From Catajapyx aquilonaris (lineage: Eukaryota): a DNA stretch of 20,000 bases. Within the stretch, counting starts at the first letter, position 1. Every line of letters begins with the position of its first letter. Below the pieces are notes generated by a model that was not told the DNA's origin, ran no database searches, and saw only the letters and a list, made by a program, of their open reading frames with translations. Position numbers and translations under genes: made by a program. The stretch covers positions 46,488 through 66,487 of the forward strand of contig JYFJ02001946.1 of the NCBI GenBank assembly GCA_000934665.2, in the 5' to 3' direction. Positions 846-20,000 of the stretch are shown here, in pieces.

Positions 846-2448
846 AAATGCTCCTGTGGTGGTGGCAACCATAGAAGAATTTGTGCTTAGTGTGGTGCAG
901 GCTTTCTCGGCCGGGACTGCTCCGGTTGTCATCGTGCAGAGCAGACTCTGCACCTGGGAGAATGGAGCCCCCACGTATGAGTGCAATGCCACAATATTAT
1001 GCCAAACATTTATCCCATTTATACTGTATACACAGCCCGTTTGGAAACGAACCTGCTGTACTGTACCACGCACGTCCCCGACACCTGTACATGTCCTTTA
1101 TATTGTTAAATTTCCCTTTTTCAGACCACTTCTTTCCCGAGTTTCTTTCGCAAGAACGCGGAGCAGGTGTCATTTTGCTCTCCTGATACATTACCTAGGT
1201 AAACTGCACGAGATTGCGCAGAAGAAAGAAATATGCACTCGCAGGTAATGTGTGAGAGCGGTATAAGTACGCATTCATTATTTCATGTGTTCAGTGCATC
1301 TCCTTCCTCCCAGGGAGTTTTTCTACCGGTCAGCCAGAATTTTTGGCAAGCAGATGGTAGTGGACATGCTGACCAGAGAGGCCAGTTTCGTGTTGAGGAT
1401 CCCAAGGGCTGCTCTTCCTCTTGTGGCCACTGCCAAAGGGCTTGTGGCTGGCGACCTCGTCTTCATGGACAACCAAGGGACAATCATCAACTGCAAGGAA
1501 GCCCAAGGGAGTATGTCTCCGTGCCAAGTACAGTTGCGGAATTGAAATTTTGAAATAATACCGGTATCTTATTATTAATTCACAGGTGTTCTCATACCGA
1601 GTGACATCGAAGGGATGATCGTGTTGCAGTCTGCAGCACGGTTTGTGCTTGTGATTGAGAAAGACGCTACCTTTCAGCACCTGATTGCTGAAAAATTCTT
1701 GGAGCAATGGGGGCCACTCATTATGATTACGGTACGTTTGCATTATGGGGTGTACCTTACTACATCTGCACAATCATACAAATTCCCTACCAATTATTTC
1801 GTCTCGCACGTCGCACTAACCTGGTCTCCGAACACTATAGACACCCATGTTGACTCTCTGGCTTTTCAGGGTAAAGGATATCCAGATTACGCCACCAGGA
1901 GATTTCTCCGGATTGTGTGGGACTACCTGCAGATTCCAGTGTTAGGACTGGCAGATGCTGATCCGTGTGGTGCTCACATACTCAGCATTTTTAAATGCGG
2001 CTCAGGCGTAAGTTTGTCATTTGGTCATACTGATACGCGGTATGACAGTAAGGTGATTTGTTATTTTGGGCAGGCCATGGCCTGTGATGTGGACGTGTTG
2101 GCCGTACCTTCCCTTTGCTGGCTGGGATTCCTTCCAGCAGATGTAGAGCATCTGAAGCTGCCCGAGACGGCCCTCATGCCCCTCACCGACAAGGACATAC
2201 AGGTTGCAAGAAGTTTGCTTCATGGCCCCTTGCAGCACATGCCTTCGTGGAAATTGCAGGTTAGTGCATTTGTGCAATGCTGTACATTCGACTGCATCGT
2301 CTGACCTTTTTTTTTCAATCGCCAGATCAAGAAACAGTTGGACCTAGGATGCAAAGCGGAGTTGGAAGGGTTGAGTTCGTTGTCGCCAAACTTCCTGGGC
2401 CTCAAGTATCTCCCGTTCAAACTGAAACATCAAGACTGGTTGGTGTAA
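846..2448 (+). CDS. SPO11: Meiotic recombination protein SPO11 (TopoVI-A-like transesterase), 5'-incomplete model of ~345 aa
   Basis: Exons 846-974, 1125-1244, 1314-1510, 1586-1731, 1870-2007, 2074-2259 and 2326-2448, all GT-AG and phase-compatible. Spliced protein has TRREFFY (catalytic Tyr, TAC 1324-1326), FGKQMVVD, ATAKGLVAG, FVLVIEKDATF (Toprim Glu), IMITGKGYPDYATRRFL, LADADPCG (DxD), WLGFLPAD, PLTDKD, KAELEGL and YLPFKL, collinear with animal SPO11. Confidence 0.97.
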
Positions 2449-2847
2449 AAAAAGTTGTACAAATTAGCATCGTTGATGTTAGTGCGACAGTGTTCACGTT
2501 ATGTTTGCTGCTGAAATTAGCAGTGTTGCGCCTTGAAAAAAAACATTATGTTTTGTTATGTCTTGGATTCATGTTGGATAATTTTTTTGCAATGAAAGTT
2601 TTGTTGTTCAGTCCCGCAGCCTTTTTTATTTCTGAAGGAGGGCCGCAGGAAAGTGCCAGAGGCGATGGAAAATCTATTGGATATGGTATAGCCCCCAGAG
2701 ATGTCAGGTTTCCATTAGCAAATTATGACACGAGAAGTTCTCATCTCACATTATTATTTTATTCTCATTCAATTATTGCTCTCTTAATCTATACTATAAT
2801 AATACTCAGTCCTAACACATCTAACATGTTATCATTCTGTTACTCTC

Positions 2848-2853
2848 AATAAA
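2848..2853 (+). promoter_or_regulatory. Candidate SPO11 polyadenylation signal
   Basis: First AATAAA found downstream of the stop at 2448. Confidence 0.4.
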
Positions 2854-4159
2854 TTCATTCTCTTGTCGTCGTATACGTATGTCGCTCAATGCTGCACTTC
2901 TTATCGCTGAGTCTCGAGCTCTTCTTTTTCTTCTCCTTGGCCTCCTTGGCCAGTCGGGGTGAGTCTGTTTGTGCACTTGTCCTCTCACAGCAACAGCTAC
3001 ATCATGTATCATAATAATCAACCAAGAACCAGTCGCTTTATTTCAGTCTCTTTTTTTTACTGCCCGCGAAGTCTTTTATCGCTTTTCCACGTCCTCGACA
3101 AATGGTAGCCTGCGTTCCCTCTGGCTTACAAGTTAGTCTGGTGTTTTATTGAGTTGCCTAGGTGTGGCACTCATTGACTCGTCACACTCTCCCCCTCGAT
3201 AAGGGCAGGTTGCCCTCGAATCTCGTGGAGTAGGCGACACGGGACTTGTCACTTCACTAACTTGTACCAGCACTTGCATATTTTTCAAAATTCCACAAAA
3301 TAAAACGCCGCAAAAAACATAGCACGTACAGTACATGTTCATTAACACATAGTGGATGGTGCGACAATATTCGGACATATTTTTGGTACCACTTTCCGTC
3401 CAATATGTGAATGTCAGATATCGTAGAAATATTTTTCATTGTCCATGGATGATAAACACTTTTAATTCCTTTGAAGAGAACAGTAAAACAGTTACGAGGC
3501 TCTCTGGAATCAATTATGTGGCATTTACTGTCGCTTTATGAGGTCCAATAAGTACCTGTAACACCCCATCTTATTTCATCTCTAAGAAACATGCAAATAC
3601 AAAACAGGAATCCTACAACGATATTTTCAACATCAAACCTTCAAAAAAATCATTGTTACAACAAATTCACAAGATGTATTATCAAGACAACATTCGGACA
3701 TGTGTTAGAACTGAGCATCTCAAAAATCACAAACAACATCTGTGCTCTTGTCGTGACTTACCTATATCATAAACAAACGAATAGTTGCCAATACAAGACA
3801 CAGTTTACTAAAAATGACCGAAAAAAGTACCGGTAATGCAAGTGTACAGTATAGATTTTGTTTTGAGTTGATTTTGAGTTGATTTCTTTGTATCTTTCCT
3901 ACCCCGAAGGCATGTCCGGCTTGGGAAACTCTGAGGTCATTAGTGTTGCCTGAGAGCCATGATTTTTTTTGTTCGCAGCATACTACACCCTCTTGCCTGA
4001 TTGATTCTTCGATTCGCTTCGATCCTTACCAATTACTTTGAATGCCCTACGCTCTCTCAAAAATTTTCTTCAATATTATATTGTCAAATCCCGCAAGATT
4101 TTAAAATTTGAACTTCGTGTTCGAAGATCCCTTTACCTTTTTTTTGTTCTGTATTAGCG

Positions 4160-4546
4160 TTAACCAAAGTGGAAGGTTGGTATTTCGATTTCTTCATTAT
4201 CTTGGTCCTTGAATTTAACCCACCCATTTTCCTTATCCTCCTGTACTCCAGCTCTTTCGCAAAAGTTTCCCCCCAAGATGGGGACTCCGTCATAGCCCTT
4301 CAATATGTGAAATTTTACCGCTCTCATTGACGTGCACCAAAAGAGCTGGAAAGTTCTAACCGCTGCTATTTCGTATGCTGTCCCTTTGACAAGCAAAATC
4401 GTACCTGTCAGCTCATCCATTTCGGTACCGATGTTCATAGCCTCCCAGCATCTGACCTCACGATCCGAGATGATCGAATACTCCACAGTGGTGTCGATAG
4501 TTAAACAAATGTTCAATTTTGCTTGAGCTGTAATAGCGGCTGACAT
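4160..4546 (-). CDS. 128-aa retropepsin (clan AA aspartic protease)-like orphan protein, paralogue A
   Basis: MSAAITAQAKLNICLTIDTTVEYSIISDREV...VKFHILKGYDGVPILGGNFCERAGVQED...FHFG. Matches the retropepsin pattern (hhhD[TS]G..S.IS, then ILG.[DN]F) but with DTT. Putative 5'UTR intron 4557-4668 (AAAG|GTACAG...tttcag). An intact paralogue of the same length lies at 10381-10767. Confidence 0.75.
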   Translation of the reverse strand: MSAAITAQAKLNICLTIDTTVEYSIISDREVRCWEAMNIGTEMDELTGTILLVKGTAYEIAAVRTFQLFWCTSMRAVKFHILKGYDGVPILGGNFCERAGVQEDKENGWVKFKDQDNEEIEIPTFHFG

Positions 4547-4849
4547 TTCTATTTTTCTGAAACAAACCCAACAAAAAAAATATGAATATCGCTTGTTCAA
4601 CACAGTTTTTTGTTGAGCAAGAAACCACCTTCGTTGCAATAATTATTCGAAAGTATAACATACTGTACCTTTTGAGATTCTCACTATTTTTGGTTTTTGT
4701 CCTTATAGGCAATGTTGTTAATTATTAACAAAATTATTCTATCCAGCTAAAGTTTCGTGGTGCGGATTTCACGACAGTCTCTCTGGATATGACCTGTAGG
4801 CCTATACCATATACGATAGGTATAGTTTCTCAATATCTATAAGCTTAGT

Positions 4850-4970
4850 AATTTTCTTTCTTTCTTTCTTTCATTCATTCTTCTATTCTTTCCTTTTTCT
4901 GTCTTTTCATTCTATTATTTTTAAATTTTTATTCCTTTCATTTCATTATTTCATTCTTCCCTTACCCTAT
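4850..4970. repeat. Pyrimidine-rich low-complexity tract (TTTC/TTCA)
   Basis: Direct inspection. Confidence 0.8.
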
Positions 4971-5206
4971 TCTACGCCGAATTACGTAAGTTATGCAACT
5001 CTTCTGTCGCATGTCCATTGTTCAAGGAGTGATAGCAAACCAAAAATAAATCTCCTTCGTAGAAATAAAAGATTTTATTGGCACCTAGCAACTGGGTTTA
5101 TCCCCCTCTTTCTAATGTGATCTAAATTGATCTTTTTTGGTTCACCGAAATTTCCTGTTATTGTTTTTATACCAACCTCATTTTCTCAATATCAATATTG
5201 CCATAT

Positions 5207-5354
5207 TCATCATCATCATCATCATCACCATCACCATCACCATCACCATCACCATCACCATCACCATTCACCACCATCATCATCATGATCATCATGATCA
5301 TCATCATCTTCTTCTTCTTATTCTTCTTGTTGCTGCTGTTGTTGTTGCTGTTGC
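5207..5354. repeat. Compound microsatellite (CAT)(CACCAT)(CAT/GAT)(CTT)(GTT/GCT) at the A/B junction
   Basis: Direct inspection; it runs straight into the start of unit B at gttgcaag. Confidence 0.95.
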
Positions 5355-5613
5355 AAGAGGTTTGCTTCATGGCTCCTTGCAGCTAGAGACTAGCAGCACA
5401 TGCCTTCATGGAAATTGCAGGTTAGTGCTGCATTTGTGCAATGCTGTATACATTCGAGTGCATCATCTGACCTTCATTATTTCGTCGCCAGATCAAGAAA
5501 CTGTTGGACCTAAGATGCAAAGCGAAGTTCGAAGGGTTGGGTCCTGTGTCGCCAAACTTCCTGGGCCTCAATACCTCCCGTTCAATCTGAATCATCAAGA
5601 CTGGTTATTGTAA
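5350..5613 (+). pseudogene. SPO11: SPO11 3' fragment (end of the penultimate exon, last intron, last exon)
   Basis: Copy of 2203-2448 that retains the intron, so a DNA-level duplication. It has a 14-nt insertion (ctagagactagcag), a 1-nt deletion (CTC AAG TAT to CTC AA TAC) and KAELE changed to KAKFE. Confidence 0.93.
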
Positions 5614-5979
5614 AAATGGCTGTACAAATTATTAGCACTGTTGATGTTAGTGCGACAGTGTTCATGTTATGTTTGCTGCTGAAATTAGCAGTGTCGCGCC
5701 TTGTAAAAAAAAGGCATTTTGTTTTGTTATGTGTTGGGTTTATGTTGGATTATTATTTTTTGCAATGAAGCCGTGTTGTTCAGCCCCGCAGCCTTTTTAT
5801 TTCTGAAGGAGGGCCGCAGGAAAGTGCCAGAGGCGATGGAAATTTCGATTCATCCAAACGAAGCCATCATAAAGGATCCAGAAACGAGAGAAAGCACTCC
5901 AACACTTATAATTCATAACTGAGTGCACAGCGACTGCTGCGGCTGGGAATACCTACGCTCTCGGCTTTGTATTGTTAGC

Positions 5980-6155
5980 GCTAGCTCAAAATGGTTGTAC
6001 TCATCATTCAAGCACAGTGAATGTGGAAGGGTCATACGAGAACAGCACACAAATGCTGTATAGAGGCTCGACAGTGTTGTCGAAGGGCTATTTGAGGCTG
6101 AAATTACGATATTGTGAGACGGGATGTGACAATGTAAAATGGCTCAGGCGCATTG
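5980..6155 (-). repeat. Partial, diverged, inverted copy of local module M
   Basis: tgaggctgaaattacgatattgtgagacgggatgtgacaatgtaaaatggctcagg aligns with 18718-18775 and with the reverse complement of 13060-13125 and 19300-19370. Confidence 0.7.
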
Positions 6156-8913
6156 ATGCTTGGTGGTAGAAAGATCATTCCTTCAATCAAATAAGAGCTT
6201 ATGAAAGTAGCCATCAATAATTGGATTTGGTCTAGCCCAGAGGAGTTTTAGGAGCAAATGATGACAAGACATCAGTGTTATTATCACACATTTATTTGCA
6301 TTATATCTTTCCGTTGCTTTCTTAACCTATAGGCTACTAATAATACCCAGTCCTAGCACATAACCCTCACATTATCTTTTACTCTCAATTTCCCTCTATT
6401 GTTGTCGTGTACGTCGCCCAACGCTGCACTTCTTATCACTGAAGCTTGAGTCTTCTGTTTCTTCTTCTTCATCATCATCTTCGTTCTTCTTGGCCCTCAT
6501 GGTCAGTCGGGGTTTCTGTTTGTCCATTTGTCTTGTCACAGCAACTGCTATTATAATAGCCAACGACCTGTCGCTTTATTTGTCTCATTTTTATAGCCCA
6601 CAAAGTCTTTTAGCACGTTGCCACAATCATCCTGGACACATTCACATGCTGACTTATCTGGTGGTCTGATGGACCCTCTGTAAGGACAGCTCACCCTCGA
6701 AACTGCACTTGTATCACATGCATTTTTAAAAAATCCACAAAAAACATCGCACGTACAGTACATGTCCATCTCCACATGGTGGATGGTTTGACGACATATG
6801 CTATTTTTGCGACGGTACCTCATTCAGTCCAATAATAATAAGTGAGCGTCAGATATTGTGGAGACATTTTTCCTTGCATTTTTCATTGTACATGGATGAT
6901 AAACACGTTTAATTCCTTTGAAATAGAACAGTAAAACAGTTATTAGGCTCTCTAAAATCTTTTATGTGGCCATTACTGTTGCTTTATGAGGTCCGATAAG
7001 TACCTGTAAGATCTCAACTTATTTAACCGTTAATAAACTTGCAAATATACAGTAAAATTACAACTTTAGAACCATTTTCAATATCAAGCATTCAAAGAAA
7101 TCCTCGTCACAAGAGGTTAACGATATCATTAATAACACAATATACGGACATGTGTTAGAACTGAGTAGGCCTATCTCAAAACTTAATCGCAATGAACATA
7201 ATTCTGTTCTCTAGACGTGACTTTACCACTCATAAACAAATAAATTATTTATCAATACAAGATATAATTTACTAAAATTACCGAAACAAGTAATGCAAGT
7301 ACAACATCGATATATATTTCGTTTTCACTTGTTTTTACATCCCATAACTAAGTTAAAACATGCAGCTTGATTAATGACAATGACAATAATTTTATCCATG
7401 TTGTAAATTCCTAATGTTATAATAATTCTTTTAAAACTAATATAAATACCAACTTGCGTTAACATCTGCTTCAATTAAATCAATAAAAATATACAGAATG
7501 AAGTTCAAAGTATTTATAAACCATACAATATCTCTGTGAGTCATAAACATACTGCCTGCAGTGTTACTTTTTCTGCATTACAGAATATAATAATTTGACT
7601 GCTTTTGAATTTAGTTTGTAAAGAGATCAATAAATCAATGAGGACATAACAGAATTTAAAAGTTACCCTTGGTATTAAACTATACCATGTTTGTTATGTG
7701 TGCTTAAAGATTTTTAAATTTCAAAAATTATAGCAGCCTAATAATTAACGCCTCCTCATCATTCTCGACTGTGTCGCAACATCATACGAAATCGGGTCTA
7801 AACTTTAGAATTTAACTGTCGAAACAATATTACCAAGTGTTTTCATCATGAGATTATCTTCTGGGAACAACATTTCAAAAATGTCTTCATCGTGAGAAGT
7901 ACAGTATGTTGTTACTTTCTGTCTTCCCAATTAAAGTTTCAATTCGTCCCCTTGTCGCTCATTAAATTTTAGCGTAATTATCTCTGCTTGGAAATGTAAC
8001 TGTTTGGAAAATAATGATAGCCTGTTTATGACTGATTCACATGCCCACAAAATATTAATATTTCCTTAACCCACATTAATATTTCGAAGAAAAAAAACAG
8101 CTACAGGCACTACACTACAGAAGACACTGTTACACTGCACTAATCAAAATTCTTCCAACTATCCCACTACAACTCAAAATACCCAAAAGCTATGTCTATA
8201 GAGGACAAGTTCAATACTTTGTCGTCCTGCACTATCTCCCCTGCTAAATAAGAAATTACTTGTGATAATAATAAATGGAGAATAATTATTCCACTATTCA
8301 ATATTTTGAGCTACTCTTGATAATCAGTATAATTATTTAAAAACTGACTTGAATTCACCTGTCATCAGATAACTTTACTAAATAAAATATCTTGGTTTCA
8401 TCCCCCCCCCCTTCTCTAAACCAGCATAAACTTCTCATTCCCGAGTTTTCCTCAAAAAATAATGAAAGAGATTATGCATTAGCAAGAGACCAAAAAGTAT
8501 AAGTTAACTATAAATATATTACCCTTCATTATTATGACTTCTGAATTTAACGAAGACTCATTGAGGAGTGCTCCCATAATGAGGACTCTTTCAGTCCGTC
8601 TGAAATATTGGTTCTGCTGGATATCTAAACCCGAGGGTTGGCATCCAGACGCACAGCAGTCAATTTTTGTGACGTATGCAGTTAATAATTTTTGCATGAC
8701 CATCTCCGAAAGTCCATCCAGCTAACAACACCGTAAAAGGGTGGTCAGATTGGAATGATGGTGCCTCAGCCCACTTCTTATAATGGAATCCGAGACAATG
8801 TGTAGAATCTGCTGAAGGAAGACATTATTTGACTGGCAGGATAGAGTTTGGCAATTTTAGGAAAGGGAAACACAGGATAAGCGATTCATTGCCAAGTTTA
8901 GAGTAACTCTGGA

Positions 8914-8940
8914 GTGGGGGGGGGGGGGGGCGGGGNTGGG
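8914..8940. repeat. Poly-G run containing an N
   Basis: Direct inspection; probably a low-quality base-call region. Confidence 0.9.
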
Positions 8941-9175
8941 AGTGATATCATAGGAAATGAAGAAGAACCAACCCAGTGATCGTTTATCAATACATTATTA
9001 TATAGTGTGGTTGATGAGCGATAATTGGGATGTATTTTATAATCCCACTGAATATTATTTTGTTGGTTGCACAAAAAATATCATTACATATTGGATCTAT
9101 GAATGATTCACTTGCCCTATTTACTCAAATCTAATGCGTGCTTTTTGGCATTAAAAATATTCGAAAATGAATGAA

Positions 9176-9850
9176 ATCAGTCTTACCATTAGGCATAAAG
9201 CATTCTACCATATAGGTAACATTTCACCACTTAAAACTAGAGGTGAGACTTAGATTTGCTGGCCACTTATATGTGAGCAAATACGGTATATTAAATTAAT
9301 GAAGGGAAAAAATTTTAACATAAAAACCAGTCTTGAACACACTGTTAATTCGAATCTAAGTCTCACTCTTTGGCTTTAAAAAGTCGGGCAAGAAATGGAT
9401 TCTAGCATATGTAACATTTTCACCACTTAAATCTAGGAGCGCGACTTACATTTGGGGGCGACTTGTATTTTTGAGCAAGTACGGTATATAAAATTAATGA
9501 AGGGGGAAAAAATCAAACTTAAAAAACAGTCTTGAACACATTGGGTGGAATTTTCTCCCCACTGCCAGTTACTGCTAACTTAGCGGTACCAACGAAAATT
9601 CGACCCATTAATTCGAATGTAAGTCGCACTTTTTGCATTTGGGGAAATAATGGGGATCAGTCTTAAAATGAGGTAGCATGCAAAGCATTTTACCATAGGT
9701 AACATTTCACCACTTAAAACTACTAGAGGTGCGACCTAGATTTGCTGGAGACTTATATTAGACTAAGCACGGTATACAAAATTAATGAAGGAAAAATCTA
9801 AGGCGCACTCTTTGGCTTTTAAAAGTCGGGAAAGAAAGGGGATAAGTCTT
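9176..9850. mobile_element. Three-copy tandem array derived from a Tc1/mariner (Tc2-like) MITE
   Basis: Units aacatttcaccacttaaa..gtg(a/c)gacttagattt..cttata..aaatacgg|TA start at ~9218, ~9413 and ~9701, with reciprocal ttcgaatctaagtc.cac segments. The ..CGACTTATA..AAATACGG+TA end resembles Tc2/Kanga-type TIRs (from recall, not searched). Confidence 0.65.
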
Positions 9851-10380
9851 TGTTTGCATTTTTGCAACATTTTGTGATATTAGTGATTATGATGCTGTTG
9901 AAGTGTTGCTCTGTGTTGGTCGGCCAAGTGTCCGTTGCTGCAGGCTGACCAAATCAAAATAAATAAAAGTTTGATGATGATGTATCACGTACCTATTTGT
10001 GTCCTCCGAAAAAAAAATATCTCCGCCCATCCCCGGCCCTGCAAAATTATCAACTTCAAACGTCACACACAAAAAAATCTGCTGTGCATGTGAATGCTAG
10101 CCCCAATTGTGGTTAGCTATCTTGTATGTTCCTGGATAACAAATAAGATAATAACAAAAGCAAATTGGTAATTAGTGTTTCCTGAAAGAAAGATATGGTT
10201 GCTTTTAATCACAATTAACTGCACTCTCTTGCCTGATTGATTATTCGATCCTTATAAAAATTTCTTTTAATGCACAACACTCTCAGAATTTTACTTCACT
10301 GGTTAAATCTCACACTTTAAATAATTTTAAAAAACTGAATTTTGTTTTTGTCCCTTTGTCATTTTCTCTCAGTATTCGTT

Positions 10381-10767
10381 TTAACCAAAGTGGAAAATTG
10401 GTATTTTGATTTCTTCATTTTTGTGGCCCTTGAATCTAATACACCCATCTTCTTCATCCTCCTCTACTCCTGCTCTTTTGCAAAAGTTTGCCCCCAAGAT
10501 GGGGACTCCGTCATAGCCTTTCAATATATGAAATTGTTCATATTTCCATGAAGTTCCCCAGAAGAGCTGGAGAGTCCTAACAGCCGCTATCTCGTATGCT
10601 GTCCCTTTTACATTCAGCTTCTTGCCGGCCATCGAATCTAGCTCGGTACTGAAGCTCATAGACTCCCAGCATCTGACCTCGCGATCCGATATGATCGAAT
10701 CCTCCACAGTGGTGTCGATTGCAAAACAAATGTACAATTTTGCATGCGCCGTAATAAGGCCTGACAT
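10381..10767 (-). CDS. 128-aa retropepsin-like orphan protein, paralogue B
   Basis: MSGLITAHAKLYICFAIDTTVEDSIISDREV...FHILKGYDGVPILGANFCKRAGVEED...FHFG; 90/128 identical to paralogue A by hand count, with no indels. Putative 5'UTR intron 10768-10889 (AAAG|GTACAG...ttttccag|ATG). Confidence 0.75.
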   Translation of the reverse strand: MSGLITAHAKLYICFAIDTTVEDSIISDREVRCWESMSFSTELDSMAGKKLNVKGTAYEIAAVRTLQLFWGTSWKYEQFHILKGYDGVPILGANFCKRAGVEEDEEDGCIRFKGHKNEEIKIPIFHFG

Positions 10768-11852
10768 CTGGAAAAGAAACACACACAAAAATCTGTAGCT
10801 ATGAATATGAGGCGTTCAGCGCAGGTTTTAGTTGAGCAAGATAACACTATACCTCTGGTTGCAATATGTTATCCTAATATACACTGTACCTTTTCAAATT
10901 CAGCCAATCTTCGTTTTTGCCCTTAAGAATGTTGTTACACTCTATCCAGAAAAAGATTCTCGGTCAGGACTCCAAGCTAGTCTCGCTGTAAATGACTGGC
11001 CGTACAATATGTATAGCAACTCAGTATCTTTTAATATTCTTTCTATCTTTTTTTTTCTTCCCTTGTCCTAATATAATTAGGCCGACTTATACGTATGTTA
11101 TGCATCACTTCTGTGGTATGGTCCATTGTTCAGGACTCGTTTAATGATCTAATACTCTCATTCACCGAAACTTGCCACCGTTCACACCGCAAAATCTCAT
11201 TTTCACTACTTGTCGACTTTTTACTACCCTTGAAATACACTTACTATCTTTTGCTTGATCTTTTGCCTAGCCATAAAGACTTTACGATCCTTACGACCAG
11301 AACAGAGTGTGGATATTAATATATAATTACAGTACGGCACTCTGCTTCGATTTTACCCCTAGAATATTTTGCACAGTTTAGAATAAAAATTTCATTTCTT
11401 TTTCCACAATATTTAACATTTATGGATATTATTCAGTCGTGACTGAGAACACGACCGTGATAACATACCCATAAATGACCAAATGGAAAAATGTGGGCGT
11501 CATTCAGAATTCATTAAGAATTGATCATTTTAGTTTTTTCTTCTTTCCTTGGAACTTAAAATCGCACTTTATTGAAATTTAGACAATATCCGACGTCCAC
11601 TGGCGTCCTCTTTCAGAAAGTTTTGTACACAAATATCAAATATAATTATAAATGTTTCCTTGTAGAAGGGTTATGTAGCCTTGGAATGACTTTTAAACAA
11701 TTATATCGAAAAGTAACAAGACTAGGGCATGCCTATACTTACATTTGTCTTTATTGCATGTGTTTTATTAGTAAGAGTGCTCAAGGCAGTTCTATGATTC
11801 AAGCGCCAATATTTTCCCGAACAATAATATTACGTAGCAAGCAAAATTATCT

Positions 11853-12944
11853 TCATGTGGACCTAAAGACGTTTTTCATCACAGTGACCATGTTGCACCG
11901 TTTACAAGTCATCTCTATTGACCACTCTGGAACAACATACGTGATGCAGTCCAGGGGCATCAGGTCCACCCCACACCGAATACAGTAGTCAACGCTGCCA
12001 ATGAAGACAATGGTGTGCCCATATACCTCCCACTCCCAATTCTTGCCCCGAACTGCTTCCTGGCGATTCTTCCATTCCCAGGAGGCCTCCCCTGGCATCC
12101 TGAACAGGGTCTTGCTCAAGGGACCTGGTCTCCGGACGCCAGATTTGAAGGCTCCAACCCGCTTCTTCCGGATGGGTCTAGCAGCAACAGTGGTCCCTTT
12201 CGCCATCATTTGGTGCTGTTGGGTCTTCTTGACATCTTTCCGCTCAACGTACTTGCTAAACGGGATGATGCGCCGATACTTCACTGCTGGTTGTTCATCG
12301 GAGGACAGAGTAGTGTCACGACGCCGTCGATGGGCTAAAACCTTATTCCGATAGCTTTCCATGGCATGACGATCTATTTCAATAGGTGCCTGCTCATCAG
12401 AGGAAAAGCCGTTGTTTGCAGATCGGTGTCGGCTAGCCAGGTATTGCTTACGCAATTCTTTCTTGTAATACTGTATGATATTGGTTTCTGACTGAGTTTC
12501 AGCAGCGACCTGATCATTGCCAAATGATTTTTCAGAAGAATCAGCCTTTATGCCAGATACTCCTACAGCATTATTCTCGAGCACATTACTCTTACGCCAT
12601 TGCCTTAGTAAAGATGTATCAGTCAAGCTGCTTTGGAATTCAACAAGAGTTTCCTCCGATGCGTCAGTCTTGCTTGCCTTCTTTGTACTCTTTTTGCGCT
12701 TCTCAATCTCTCTAGCTGACTTATTACTGGAGTCACTGTGGCCATCTTCAGGTTTCCCTGCAACTGAATTACTCAATCAACCTCAATTTTTGTAGTACTG
12801 TATTACAACATGTTACAGTAAAATAGGGTCTGCATCTCAACACTATTGTAGTGTAAAAATTAATAATACAGCCTCACCTTCGTTATTATTGCAGAATAAT
12901 CTTGATAAATATGGCTGGACCAATCTCCACAAAAATGCAGCCAT
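11853..12944 (-). CDS. Two-exon, 323-aa basic low-complexity protein with a C-terminal CxxC..CxxC zinc ribbon; function unknown
   Basis: Exon 1 12944-12878 (aataatATGG; MAAFLWRLVQPYLSRLFCNNNE; donor AAG|GTGAGG, phase 1), intron 12877-12758 (ends ttgcag), exon 2 12757-11853 in frame. Has NLS-like KRKKSTKK, HRRRR and RKKR, a repeated SSDEQ motif, and CIRC..CKRC. Confidence 0.78.
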
Positions 12945-13890: not shown

Positions 13891-15659
13891 TCATGGAAAT
13901 CACATTTGGCATGTGATGATGCGCCAACGTAATGTAAGTGCCCAATGGCCTGTTAGGAAACACAAAATGTACGGGCTAATGTCGCCGAGCTCAGCAATAA
14001 AATCACATAACCTACTGTACTGTATAAGATGGACCAAATTCAGTCAGTGATCTTCTGTATCCCTGTCTATCAGAACGACCTCGAGTGTACATTTCCTCAC
14101 CTTAGGCGACTGTGTATTATAATGATCACTGTTATTGTCAATATCAATAAAGCAATGTCAAACCCACACCGAGAAGTTTCCTTCATCTCCACTCTAATGA
14201 ACACGTACCGGTATAAGAACATCAAGACCATCTCTGAGAAATGATGCTGGGAAACATTATGGCGTAGCCGACGGATAATTTATTGGAATTGGAGAAAAAC
14301 CTGTTATTTGGAAACCGTTGCAAACTGAAAGTAGCTGATTGGAGGTGTCATGAGATGGCCTTTTTACGCATTTTTAAATGAAATTTTTGATAATCGTGGA
14401 TTGGTAGTTCATCATAGCCACGGAGGTCGGTTTGGAGTTAGCTGGTTTTTCTTGAAAAATGATTTTTTCCACAGAAATAATTTTTTAACAATAATATGGC
14501 GAGTGTTAAAATGAGGATTAATATACGTAGATACCAAAAAACCTTAATTTAACACATTTACCATTATGGAAAATATTATTGCATTGGAGCTGGCTTGTTA
14601 AGTACACATACTTGGATCTAGCTGCGTTTGTATGCAGAAAACGAATTTTATGTCATGGATCTAACTGGTTTTGCTTAGGACACGCATTTTTGGAGCCAGT
14701 TTACTCCCGGTTTTGTGCCACACAATATTTGAGTATACTTGGTAGAGGGCATCATAATTATAACAAGGATAAAATCTCGGCCTAGTACACAGTGGTTAGA
14801 CCTGTCATGAACTGTAGTTAGAAAAATAATCGAATGTAAATGGGGACACGAATGTCCTTTTTAAATATTCATGCAAATGACTTGTTTTTGCATAAAAAAT
14901 ATCAACCTACCGTATGTGAGTATATGGCTTTTTGTTGGTTATCATCATTTCTTCGTTGAAGGTTTGGGTGTGTAAATTCATGTATAAAATGTTTCCTAGT
15001 AAAAGAGCTTTTAACCAGGAATGGCTTTTAACCTGGAATGGCTCTATAAAAAGAGGAATTGAAAAGTAACACAATATGACATGCCTACTACTTATCCATT
15101 CGCCTTTATTACGTACATGTGTCTTTAATTAACGTCAGTGTTCAAGGCAGTTCCATGATACAAACGGCACCTGTAAATTCTGTCTCTGCATGTTGTGTAC
15201 AGAATCATTGCAGATGCGAGGTCATGGAGAACAAAAACAATAATGCCCATGTTGTGACTCAGCTAAGAAAAGTGTAGTCTACTATACTTTCACTGGCAGA
15301 TAACATGCAGCACAATGAACAGGACTTGAGTAGTTACGTAGTTACGTGTTTTAATTGCCACTGCTGCATATCAACCGGAATGACATATCGAGAACCGTCG
15401 AGAACTAAGAGTTATGTGCTGACTCCCATAATGGATTATAAATACTGACCGGTACTAAATTTTGCATTATGGGTTACTAAAGGAACCCATAATTTATTGT
15501 ATTTCACTTTTTCCACCACCCTTTACGACACCAAAATCGGGTATGGCGAGCGTGCCAGTTTGTTTTTCCTTGTCCAATATTACCTTTAATGCCCCTCATT
15601 ATACGTATACTGACCTGACCTATTATGTCGTTGAGCATATCATCTGAAATCAGCTCTTA

Positions 15660-15786
15660 GGGCCGGTTTCACCGAGCTTGGTATATGATAAAACCAGGTT
15701 TCTTTAGGAAAATCCAATACAAATAGATAGGGATTTTGAGAAAGAACCCTGGTTTTATCATATACTGAGCTCGGTGAAACCGGCCC
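15660..15786. mobile_element. PIF/Harbinger (Tourist-like) MITE, 127 bp
   Basis: 46-bp TIRs starting GGGCCGGTTTCACCGAGCT with 3 mismatches; TTA target-site duplication at 15657-15659 and 15787-15789. Confidence 0.9.
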
Positions 15787-15844
15787 TTAAATACTATACC
15801 GAATGAAACCACTGTTCACCAACAATTTCCTGAACAATATTACA

Positions 15845-16132
15845 TTACATGCAAAATATATTATTATCTTCAATGACATCTTTCATTACAGTGACCATGT
15901 TGCACCGTTTACAAGTCATCTCTATTGACCACTCTGGAACAACATACGTGATGCAGTCAAGGGGCATCAGGTCCACCCCACACCGAATACAGTGGTCAAG
16001 GCTGCCAAAGAAAACAATGGTGTCCACATGTACTGTACTTCCCATTCTTGCCCTGAACTGCTTATTGGCGTTCTTCCGGCATTCCCAGGAGGTCTCCTCT
16101 GCCATTCTGAACAGGGGCTTACTCAATGGACC
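15845..16132 (-). pseudogene. 3' half of the second Zn-ribbon gene copy (still an open frame; 86 aa from ATG 16105)
   Basis: CIRCGVDLMPLDCITYVVPEWSIEMTCKRCNMVTVMK is identical to copy C; the upstream part has compensating indels; homology stops at 16132. Confidence 0.75.
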
Positions 16133-16623: not shown

Positions 16624-17509
16624 TCAAATACCCAGATCACATGACGATCTGAAGAGATGGCCTGGTATTGAACCAATAGAACAAATAATATATATCGTCT
16701 CAATAATATTTTTACGCATGCAGAAATGTACAGTACCTTGGTGATACAACCCGGACACCACGAGTTCTTTCAACTCTGTGCAGTCCCGAATGAAGCGCTT
16801 GATCCTGGCCCCGTGGTTCATGCAGGTAATATTAACAAGACTAAGCGACCCCAAGGTGGGAGCGCTTTTTCTGACAGCATTAAACAACGTGTTTGTGTTT
16901 CCAGACCTCCAATTCCTCAGCTCCAGTTGTTTAAGCCATCTCATGCCAAGAAGCCACTCGGCGGCATGTGGGCAGTTCAGTCCTAAGGCCTCACCGTCCA
17001 GCGTGACCCGTTTCCACAGAGATGGATCTTTCGCCAGCTGTTCCCAAGATTTGCAGACCAACGCAGCTTTTGTCACCAGCTCTTCTTCGGTTAGGTAAGA
17101 GAACACCTTCAACATCATCTCAGGAGGAAGCCGCGAAAAGCCCCCTTGAATCTGAAAAGTAATGTGAATGCCATGGTGTGCGTCAAATTATTATTGACCA
17201 GTTAGGGATTTAACCAGCAGGCAAGTGGCCATAACTTCGCTGTAACTAATTAATGGTGTTCAAATATTTTTCAAATATTGTTTGACTTACGATTACGACT
17301 TCCATGCTCTTGCCCTCATCACTTTTGTTCCTGCTTCTCTTCATATTTTTAGGCCCCTGTCCTTCTTTCTCTTCCCTTACTCCTGCAACATTCACCACAC
17401 TTCGTCTGCATGTCTTCCCAACTATTCCAGCAGTTTCATTACCAGATTGGTCTTCAGTGGGTCCCTGCCTCTTCCTACCTGACCTCCTCAATGTTCCAGA
17501 TGAGATCAT
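16624..17509 (-). CDS. F-box / leucine-rich-repeat (FBXL-like) protein, apparently C-terminally truncated
   Basis: Exon 17509-17291 (ATC|GTAAGT, phase 0), intron 17290-17152 (ends ttttcag), exon 17151-16737 encoding FSRLPPEMMLKVFSYLTEEELVTKAALVCKSWEQLAKDPSLWKRVTL (canonical F-box) and LRR-like LKQLELRNW, LGSLSLVNI, CTELKELVVSG. Probable intron 16736-16662; stop at 16624-16626. Start codon uncertain (another acceptor at 17539). Confidence 0.85.
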
Positions 17510-18963: not shown

Positions 18964-19138
18964 TTAGTAGCCCTTCTCGGAAAGGAAGGGCAGAGATGAA
19001 ATTAATGATACAGTAAATTAATTTTTGCGCACTTCCCGAGGCGGAGATTAATGAATGTGACGGATGTGACGGGTGATATCAAATATGACATTATTCGAAT
19101 ATGGAACCTCTGAATTTCATTGTTAACTACAGTATAGA
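18964..19138 (-). mobile_element. Possible short non-autonomous Helitron-like element
   Basis: Minus strand starts A|TCTATACTG and ends GCCCTTC-ctttccga-GAAGGGC-ta-CTAA (hairpin plus CTRR). The next base is C rather than the canonical T. Confidence 0.35.
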
Positions 19139-19143
19139 TGCAA

Positions 19144-19230
19144 CTCAGGACACCAGATTTGAAGGATCCAACCTGCTTCTTTCGGGTGGGTCTAACAGCC
19201 GCGACAATTGCCTCTTTTGTCATCACGAAT
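19144..19230 (-). pseudogene. Middle fragment of the second Zn-ribbon gene copy
   Basis: MTKEAIVAAVRPTRKKQVGSFKSGVL aligns with MAKGTTVAARPIRKKRVGAFKSGVR of copy C; the N-terminal ~800 nt of C are missing. Confidence 0.8.
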
Positions 19231-19810
19231 TTGTGGCTGGATACTTTGGTCAAACTTTATGGTGGACTAACTATATTGTTTTTCTGGTTTAGTCCCATGC
19301 CTGCGCGTACGCCATTATGCATTGTCACATCATTCTAGTCTTACAATAACTTATTCTCAGCCTCACATAATGACCAAAGACCAATTATTCGACCGTAAAA
19401 CATCATTCTGTGGACTCGCAGAAATAATTCCTTCACATGATAAGGCAATATTTTTGGTCTGACGTCTGATAGCACTTTTTAATATTGTCAGCGTCTTAGG
19501 TCGTAAATTTCTCATAAAATTTCAGAAAAGCACATTGAGTGTTTAACAATATAACAATGCATGATAGGACACTGCTTGCTTTGCTTCCTCAGCAGGGATG
19601 AAGGGTTAGCCAGTAGCTCACTTGAAGCCCTAGAACAAACACCTCCAGCCCCAGGCCTGCTGCCCTTCAAGTAGCCTACCTAGATTACAGATGCGAGTGT
19701 AAGTACAGCTTAATTGCAGTTAGAATTTGGTAGTCGGAGAGGGGTTTCGTAACACTCTGTAACATTAATCAACATTTTCTCCATTTCAGGAATCTCTGAA
19801 TCAGCCATAT

Positions 19811-19880
19811 TAATGTCAGGTTTGACAGAGAAATTCAGCGTGATATTGAAAGCTACCTGGCTCTTGCAAACCTGACATTA
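19811..19880. ncRNA. Pre-miRNA-like hairpin, copy 3
   Basis: Both 20-nt arms are identical to copy 1 and the differences fall in the loop region; basal extension CCAT/ATGG. Confidence 0.45.
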
Positions 19881-20000
19881 TCATGGAAATCACGAACACC
19901 ACCGATAGTGGGGGCTCTTAGGGTCCAAATTCGACCAGATGGGGACAGGTTGGACAAAAGCACCAATTTTTTTCCATGGAATCTGTATTGCTTACGCTTT

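Follow-up and report, generated by a model that had tools for sequence, protein, structure and literature searches.

Few host genes have, to our knowledge, been built from the proteases of retroelements: ASPRV1, DDI1/2, and protease-derived portions of PEG10 and RTL1, known mainly from mammals and yeast. Retropepsins are described as carrying a D-T/S-G-A loop with the catalytic Asp pair, forming an obligate homodimer, and having a Thr or Ser "fireman's grip" and flaps, with a C-terminal consensus helix that reads G-R-N/D, or G-L-D in the DDI proteins (excerpts of PMC7072860). Among the proteases studied in those excerpts, the Gly of the motif is replaced only in the feline foamy virus protease, where it is Gln (PMC7072860). 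Domesticated genes derived from proteases, such as ASPRV1, are described as single-copy genes that gain introns and often lose their ancestral activity (excerpts of PMC3670739). Here, we describe two paralogous genes, A and B, in a stretch of 20,000 nucleotides from Catajapyx aquilonaris (JYFJ02001946.1, positions 46,488 to 66,487 of the forward strand), referred to below as the window. Its content is eukaryotic, with short GT-AG introns and a SPO11 gene. With a probability of about 60%, A and B are a domesticated host gene pair that is under selection and encodes a retropepsin-like domain. A literature search covering domesticated retropepsins, pseudoproteases, and retroviral-like aspartic proteases found no description of a D-T-T retropepsin or of an A/B gene.

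A first-pass annotation of the window reported two intact open reading frames (ORFs) of 128 aa and left their strand unstated. The ORF list confirms both and places them on the minus strand:

4160..4546, minus strand: gene A coding sequence (CDS), an ATG-to-stop ORF of 128 aa plus stop, with D18-T19-T20-V21, a putative flap at V53-K-G-T-A57, and I90-L-G-G-N94
10381..10767, minus strand: gene B CDS, an ATG-to-stop ORF of 128 aa plus stop, paralogue of A

The two proteins are identical at 90 of 128 residues and positive at 103 of 128, with 0 gaps (BLASTP, E 2e-68). Nucleotide identity is 82% between the coding sequences and falls to 64% in the upstream flanks and 70% in the downstream flanks. 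BLASTP and a MAFFT alignment therefore agree with the earlier description of proteins about 70% identical, ORFs without indels, and flanks rich in them. Two blocks previously described as invariant, IDTTVE-x-SIISD (residues 17–28) and FHILKGYDGVPILG-x-NFC (residues 79–96), are indeed unchanged between A and B. The 38 residue differences cluster at positions 36–52 (11 of 17), 71–78 (6 of 8), and 102–116 (9 of 15); the first two clusters had been recognized before and the third had not. In both genes, the limits of the ORF coincide exactly with those of the domain. A tblastn search of the window found no copy beyond A and B, with the next matches at E values of at least 0.5.

The pair arose from a single local tandem segmental duplication of ~3.1 kb. 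Self-comparison of the window with blastn matches 2203–3875 to 5350–7336 and 3935–4871 to 10167–11054. The duplicated unit begins within an exon of the neighboring SPO11 gene, and its second copy is split by an insertion:

1203–2450, plus strand: SPO11 / topoisomerase VI-A gene, with TP6A_N in frame 1267–1542, Toprim in frame 1579–2301, and, by eye, four GT-AG introns of 64–137 nt
2203..4871, no strand assigned: duplication copy 1, with the SPO11 3' end, spacer, and gene A; blocks 2203–2671, 2676–3090, 3302–3875, and 3935–4871 each match copy 2
5350..7336, no strand assigned: first part of duplication copy 2, including the decayed SPO11 3'-end fragment at 5350–5690
5350–5690, plus strand: incomplete second copy of the SPO11 3' end, covering the last exon, the intron, and some of the penultimate exon; formerly coding sequence is disrupted by a 14-nt insertion and a 1-nt deletion
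7337..10166, no strand assigned: AT-rich insertion of 2.8 kb that splits copy 2, with high-copy short repeats (the bin 9339–10005 lies at ~2427x against a baseline of ~30x)
10167..11054, no strand assigned: second part of duplication copy 2, with gene B and flanks

With a unit that starts inside a SPO11 exon and carries a SPO11 3' fragment, the duplication took place at the DNA level and not by retrotransposition. The fragment also serves as an internal control: this non-functional coding sequence within the duplication has decayed, whereas the A and B ORFs have not. The closest database proteins to SPO11 are only 29%–34% identical, which indicates that the host lineage is poorly represented in databases. 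Divergence is uneven across the duplication. The block 2203–2671 is 86% identical to 5350–5842 by blastn, with a mean column identity of 91% over 2190–2520, and the other blocks are only 69%–73% identical; candidate causes are gene conversion, duplication in two steps, and constraint acting on the 3' region of SPO11. Trinucleotide microsatellites mark the edges of the duplicated unit, at 451–505 (CAG/CAA-type) and 5181–5329 (CAT/CAC-type).

Both proteins have been held under constraint since the duplication. In the MAFFT alignment of the two loci, the 559 flank columns contain 13 indel events; the 387 CDS columns contain none, where ~9.0 would be expected (P ~1.2e-4). Nei-Gojobori estimates, which rest on this one paralogue pair, give 0.37 synonymous (dS) and 0.168 non-synonymous (dN) substitutions per site and a dN/dS of 0.45; Fisher's test comparing these two classes of change gives p = 0.008, and differences are distributed 25/15/29 over the three codon positions. 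The ratio is uneven along the protein, at 0.40 for residues 1–35, 0.84 for 36–52, 0.03 for 53–70, 0.60 for 71–78, 0.17 for 79–101, and 1.17 for 102–128, with few sites in each segment. The proposal of the first-pass annotation that the proteins diversify around the flap is not supported, since in the hhalign register the putative flap VKGTA (53–57) and the strand that follows it (together 53–70, dN/dS 0.03) are the most constrained part of the protein. The catalytic loop and residues 79–101 are also conserved. The variable segments show relaxed constraint; positive selection is not demonstrated.

Copy number and context were examined across the window. Four DNA runs from a single sample contain the window; no RNA run is listed for it, which carries no information on expression. 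A further run covers almost none of the window. Sequencing depth along the contig in a DNA run is 30.2 for A and 31.9/29.4 for B, at the window baseline of ~30, and A and B are single-copy at a likeness of at least 90%. With this depth and two copies in the window, the pair is, at that likeness, not part of a dispersed repeat. Among 119 stop-to-stop frames of at least 55 aa in the window, Pfam identified only the SPO11 domains, one F-box, and weak matches at chance level, with no gag, reverse transcriptase (RT), RNase H, or integrase. No direct repeats resembling long terminal repeats (LTRs) were found bracketing A or B in the window. The frame-wise Pfam scan and the direct-repeat search thus bear out the earlier statement that gag, RT, integrase, and LTRs are missing nearby. 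Single-copy depth, dN/dS of 0.45, CDSs free of indels, and a neighborhood free of mobile-element genes all support the status of A and B as host genes. High-copy short repeats do occur elsewhere in the window, with summed contig depths far above the baseline of ~30 in the 667-base bins 9339–10005 (~2427), 14008–14674 (185), 15342–16008 (~19,800), and 19344–20000 (314), and three tandem-like copies of a ~140-nt unit occupy 9176–9801.

These results bear on whether A and B could instead be a leftover low-copy retroelement protease, or another non-functional duplicate, whose frames have stayed open by chance and serve no host function. Such a history would account for the lack of any annotated or predicted relative in the protein collections searched, for the presence of short protease-only clusters (which may be element fragments) among the nearest neighbors in feature space, and for three segments with dN/dS of 0.6–1.2. 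It does not fit two frames of 128 codons that share the same ends and differ by no indel at a dS of 0.37, where ~9 events are expected, nor dN/dS values of 0.03 (53–70) and 0.17 (79–101). The SPO11 fragment of the same duplication has decayed, ORF limits match domain limits exactly, depth is single-copy, and the window holds no gag, RT, or integrase remnants. We regard this explanation as quite unlikely.

Gene structure was also compared between the copies. The first-pass annotation described an intron in the 5' untranslated region (5'UTR) of each gene, and the following features are predicted from the sequence:

4557..4668, minus strand: putative 112-nt intron in the 5'UTR of gene A; donor AAAAG|GTACAG (GT at 4668), acceptor ...gtttgtttcag, with its end 10 nt upstream of the ATG
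10768..10889, minus strand: putative 122-nt intron in the 5'UTR of gene B; same donor (GT at 10889), acceptor ...ttttccag directly before the ATG
4669..4871, minus strand: region that may hold the promoter and a non-coding first exon of gene A, homologous to 10890–11054 upstream of B and broken by indels

The AAAAG|GTACAG donor and the pyrimidine-rich CAG acceptor are retained in both copies, and the predicted sizes of 112 and 122 nt fall inside the range of 64–137 nt read for the neighboring SPO11 introns. Since the acceptor is separated from the ATG by 10 nt in A and by 0 nt in B, an upstream exon cannot code in the same frame in both copies; the offsets fit a 5'UTR intron with the ATG as the true start. 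Conservation of the splice-site sequences therefore holds as described, and splicing itself is a prediction.

Two comparisons connect the proteins to the retropepsin clan. In a feature search of the ESM Atlas, the first hits scored 0.95 with 176 shared features for A and 0.96 with 182 for B. The RVP_2/gag-asp_proteas/Asp_protease_2 set accounted for 18 of 30 listed hits for A and 19 of 30 for B, and the other listed hits were RVP and a few clusters without a common family. For each protein, the ten best hits that carry a family all belong to the same family or clan; in calibration, ~1 in 100 shuffled proteins reached 0.95, ten of ten was also seen in a third of shuffled proteins, and the results for A and B do not count as independent evidence. 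The second comparison used hhalign with a template of 59 bacterial PF13650/PF13975 domains, a retropepsin-like family chosen beforehand; PF08284, present in 1 of 301 cyanobacterial genomes, was not used. The profile of A and B aligned to this family at a probability of 24% (score 23.5, P 8.2e-4). Locally, the match is confident over the ILG motif and the C-terminal strands (query 90–117), and the greedy alignment is collinear over residues 1–124, pairing DTT with DTG, VKGTA with the flap "ta-G", and FHIL...ILG-x-NF with V...LLG-x-x-F. None of 150 column-shuffled queries reached the score (mean 11.2, standard deviation 2.3, maximum 23.2), and the reversed query scored 12.7. A diverse subgroup of 28 members gave P 9.5e-4 and a probability of 22% by itself. 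None of 120 column-shuffled templates reached the score (maximum 16.7); the reversed template scored 12.2, and five other ORFs of the window scored 9.0–11.0. When the halves were aligned separately, the C half gave P 2.4e-4, and the best local alignment of the N half independently set IDTT on LDTG with a score of 13.9 (P 0.044), which is not above all shuffles. I90-L91-G92-[G/A]93-N94-F95 is invariant except at residue 93, contains the hydrophobic-hydrophobic-Gly-x-Asp/Asn start of the consensus helix, and aligns to LLG-x-x-F of the family.

A known element was used as a calibration for profile searches:

L173:1726–5571 (IMG/VR contig), plus strand: chromovirus-type pol with a Pfam-silent protease and a D-G-G loop

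Pfam finds the RT, RNase H, integrase, and chromo domains of this pol but not its protease, which aligns to the bacterial profile at 77% probability and has D-G-G in its catalytic loop, not D-T/S-G. Silence in Pfam and a deviant motif thus both occur in a genuine retroelement protease, an example of how variable such proteases are and how readily they escape detection, and silence in Pfam is not decisive against a retropepsin reading of A and B.

Several results weigh against the retropepsin identity of A and B. Searches of Pfam, NCBIfam, and PHROGs at E <= 10 gave no clan-AA family for either protein, only irrelevant weak matches. A plain hidden Markov model (HMM) of the 59-member family, with filters off, scored 5.0 bits for B and 1.3 bits for A, and a subgroup of 31 alphaproteobacterial members gave no signal in the profile comparison (P 0.3). 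The hhalign probability is only 22%–24%, and one of the 150 query shuffles came near the score (23.2). In a search of IMG/VR with RT motifs, which returned 2 loci and then 69 loci, the HMM built from A and B performed no better on 296 ORFs of the 69 RT-bearing loci than on reversed decoys (2.4 versus 2.5 bits). AlphaFold2 models built on the two-sequence alignment had a mean predicted local distance difference test (pLDDT) score of 37.2 with A first and 35.0 with B first, and both of these low-confidence models put a helix at ~57–70, where the hhalign register has strands. Both proteins depart from the D-T/S-G-A consensus: D18-T19-T20-V21 keeps the Asp and Thr, with Thr in place of Gly and Val in place of Ala. 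An exhaustive HMMER search of 1.84 billion representative proteins returned no retropepsin, only three WD40-repeat arrays.

We searched other collections for relatives of the pair. A word-based search of 5.8 billion proteins of near lengths found no relative of A or B, and no relatives were detectable among the 15 billion clustered sequences of the public protein collections covered. A sequence search of the PDB with A and B returned nothing relevant, and protein-pattern scans of viral and metagenome contigs gave no A/B-like match. A degenerate DNA pattern for GYDGVPILG identified five loci in metagenomes, all of which were rejected as chance matches of the motif only.

The three matches found by HMMER are bacterial WD40 arrays that align to residues ~9–60 with E values of 6e-8 to 4e-5. 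This stretch of A and B (~4367–4522 and ~10588–10743, minus strand) reads S-D-x-x-V-R-x-W-[ED]...G.E...L-T-G. These matches are the starting point for a different explanation, in which A and B are a real lineage-specific gene pair with a non-retropepsin fold, either a novel small alpha/beta fold or one like a WD40 blade, and the DTT and ILG motifs are coincidental. The resemblance of SDREVRCWE...G.E...LTG to a WD repeat, the long helix at 57–70 in the low-confidence AlphaFold2 models, and the silence of the curated clan-AA models all agree with it. The E values, however, come from summing 5–10 near-identical repeats that score 1.6–10.3 bits each, only three proteins passed where a true WD40 relative would match very many, Pfam WD40 gives no match to A or B at E <= 10, and a protein of 128 residues with one WD-like motif cannot form a propeller. 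Kinship with WD40 proteins was rejected on the basis of the summed weak repeats, the silence of Pfam WD40, and the single motif-like stretch in 128 aa; the resemblance is probably convergent and at the level of the motif. In addition, two independent methods, the ESM Atlas and hhalign, indicate the retropepsin clan, already proposed from the motifs before these comparisons. A different fold is distinctly improbable.

On balance, sequence comparison suggests that A and B very probably contain a retropepsin-like domain. The first-pass reading of such a domain is supported by the retropepsin neighbors in the ESM Atlas and the collinear hhalign alignment; a curated clan-AA match and a usable AlphaFold2 model did not follow, and we infer the fold. 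Dimerization, retroelement origin, and activity are likewise inferred. Most likely, each gene encodes a lone retropepsin-like domain of 128 residues, an ancient acquisition from a Ty3/gypsy-type (RVP_2-like) LTR retroelement protease. One chain would form half of a retropepsin, and pairing of A with A, B with B, or A with B would give the usual two-fold dimer. The equivalent of the catalytic loop, I17-D18-T19-T20-V21, would retain the Asp and the fireman's-grip Thr. The flap hairpin would lie around V53-K-G-T-A57, the strand and loop F79-HILKGYDGV-P89 would lead into I90-L-G-x-N94 as the start of the consensus helix, and the C-terminal strands (~108–125) would lie at the dimer interface. A homodimer prediction for A scored 0.05 against a mark of 0.32 and counts neither way.

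All the elements that would line the cleft (the Asp, the Thr, the flap-like Gly, the 84–88 loop, and I-L-G-x-N) are invariant between the paralogues. In the hhalign register, the three variable segments are loops away from the putative cleft, and one of them is an extra stretch of ~11 residues that follows the catalytic loop and precedes the flap. Invariant cleft elements together with variable loops fit a maintained binding cleft. Because Thr replaces a near-universal Gly and Val replaces Ala, we expect weak, altered, or absent catalysis, in which case the main role of the protein would be that of a dimeric module that binds peptides (a pseudo-protease) or of a protease with narrow specificity.

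A retropepsin-like domain could also be put to use with its catalysis intact. A and B would then be active aspartic proteases in which the D-T-T-V loop still hydrolyzes peptides, serving as specialized processing enzymes. Both proteins retain the catalytic Asp as well as the Thr of the fireman's grip, and the invariance of the putative flap, the 84–88 loop, and ILG-x-N at a dS of 0.37 is what a maintained working cleft would lead one to expect. The feline foamy virus protease has Gln for the motif Gly, so that Gly is not absolutely universal; the same source nevertheless describes the Gly as highly conserved in retroviral and retroviral-like proteases (excerpts of PMC7072860). In A and B, the Gly and the Ala that follows it are both replaced by beta-branched residues, and AlphaFold2 gave no usable structure model. 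We consider catalytic activity of this kind unlikely. A further proposal within the domesticated-pair model is that A and B are dead subunits that act in genome defense by forming heterodimers with protease monomers of LTR elements or retroviruses, a dominant-negative "dimer poisoning". The conserved cleft and interface core would mimic the target, and the fast segments 36–52, 71–78, and 102–116, together with the duplication, would reflect the tracking of different element families. We consider this idea highly improbable.

Other features of the window were recorded. A second locally duplicated family lies on the minus strand at 11856–12362, 15848–16105, and 19005–19256. Its C-terminal CIRCGVDLMPLDCITYVVPEWSIEMTCKRCNMVTVMK, a zinc-ribbon-like motif of the form CxxC...CxxC, is identical in two copies; the frame 11856–12776 is open for 307 codons, and Pfam gives only weak sub-threshold hints (RNHCP, DUF4193). 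Scanning the window for Rfam families and tRNAs gave no matches. One more domain was identified, in an ORF that is probably an exon of an F-box/LRR-type gene:

16627–17187, minus strand: F-box-like domain ORF (PF12937, E 7.6e-17)

If the domesticated-pair model is true, A and B would offer a clean natural case of retropepsin-scaffold re-use after loss of the canonical glycine. They are small and tractable for asking whether domains of this kind turn into dominant-negative inhibitors or into pseudo-enzymes that bind peptides. Curated profiles and AlphaFold2 missed A and B, and Pfam missed the chromovirus protease; similar genes are therefore probably under-counted.

Among known systems, the Ty3/gypsy-type proteases (RVP_2/gag-asp_proteas, clan AA) are the nearest language-model neighbors of A and B and have a comparable size of ~120–140 aa. 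They present the same elements in the same order: a hydrophobic strand, a D-T-x loop, S-h-h-S (h, hydrophobic), the flap Gly, h-h-h-L-G-x-[DN]-[FW], and C-terminal strands. A and B, in contrast, stand alone with their own ATG and stop, are single-copy, have a probable 5'UTR intron, and have no gag or pol around them. They also carry Thr at position 3 of the motif and show no HMMER-level similarity to any member. The L173 chromovirus protease resembles the pair in deviating from D-T/S-G and in being invisible to Pfam. Bacterial stand-alone or fused retropepsin-like domains (Asp_protease_2 PF13650, gag-asp_proteas PF13975) align collinearly in hhalign with P ~1e-3; they differ in having a canonical DTGA, the probability of the alignment is 22%–24%, and one of their two subgroups gives no signal.

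The described host genes differ from A and B in other ways. ASPRV1/SASPase, a mammalian gene, has a canonical motif; A and B are a minimal domain with D-T-T, have no detectable sequence relationship to it, and come from an unrelated lineage. Like A and B, ASPRV1 is described as a single-copy host gene from a retroelement protease that lacks the other pol domains (excerpts of PMC3670739). Unlike them, it is described as an active, self-processing enzyme released from a longer precursor (excerpts of PMC7408472 and PMC11402058). The DDI proteins are pan-eukaryotic and retain D-S/T-G-A, whereas A and B are without extra domains or detectable homologues. DDI proteins carry ubiquitin-like or UBA domains. 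The RVP domain of DDI1/DDI2 is similar to A and B in having a consensus helix without the Arg of G-R-D (G-L-D-M-L in DDI, G-G-N or G-A-N in A and B), and it is a eukaryotic host retropepsin that forms a homodimer, where the dimer of A and B is putative (excerpts of PMC7072860). The feline foamy virus protease, a viral polyprotein domain with Gln and not Thr, is the precedent for a variable third position of the motif (excerpts of PMC7072860). Compared with the known domesticated proteases, what is new in A and B is a minimal domain that stands alone, lacks the defining Gly, has no detectable relatives, and comes from a poorly sampled lineage. Most likely, the pair adds a modest further case in which part of a mobile element has been put to new use by its host.

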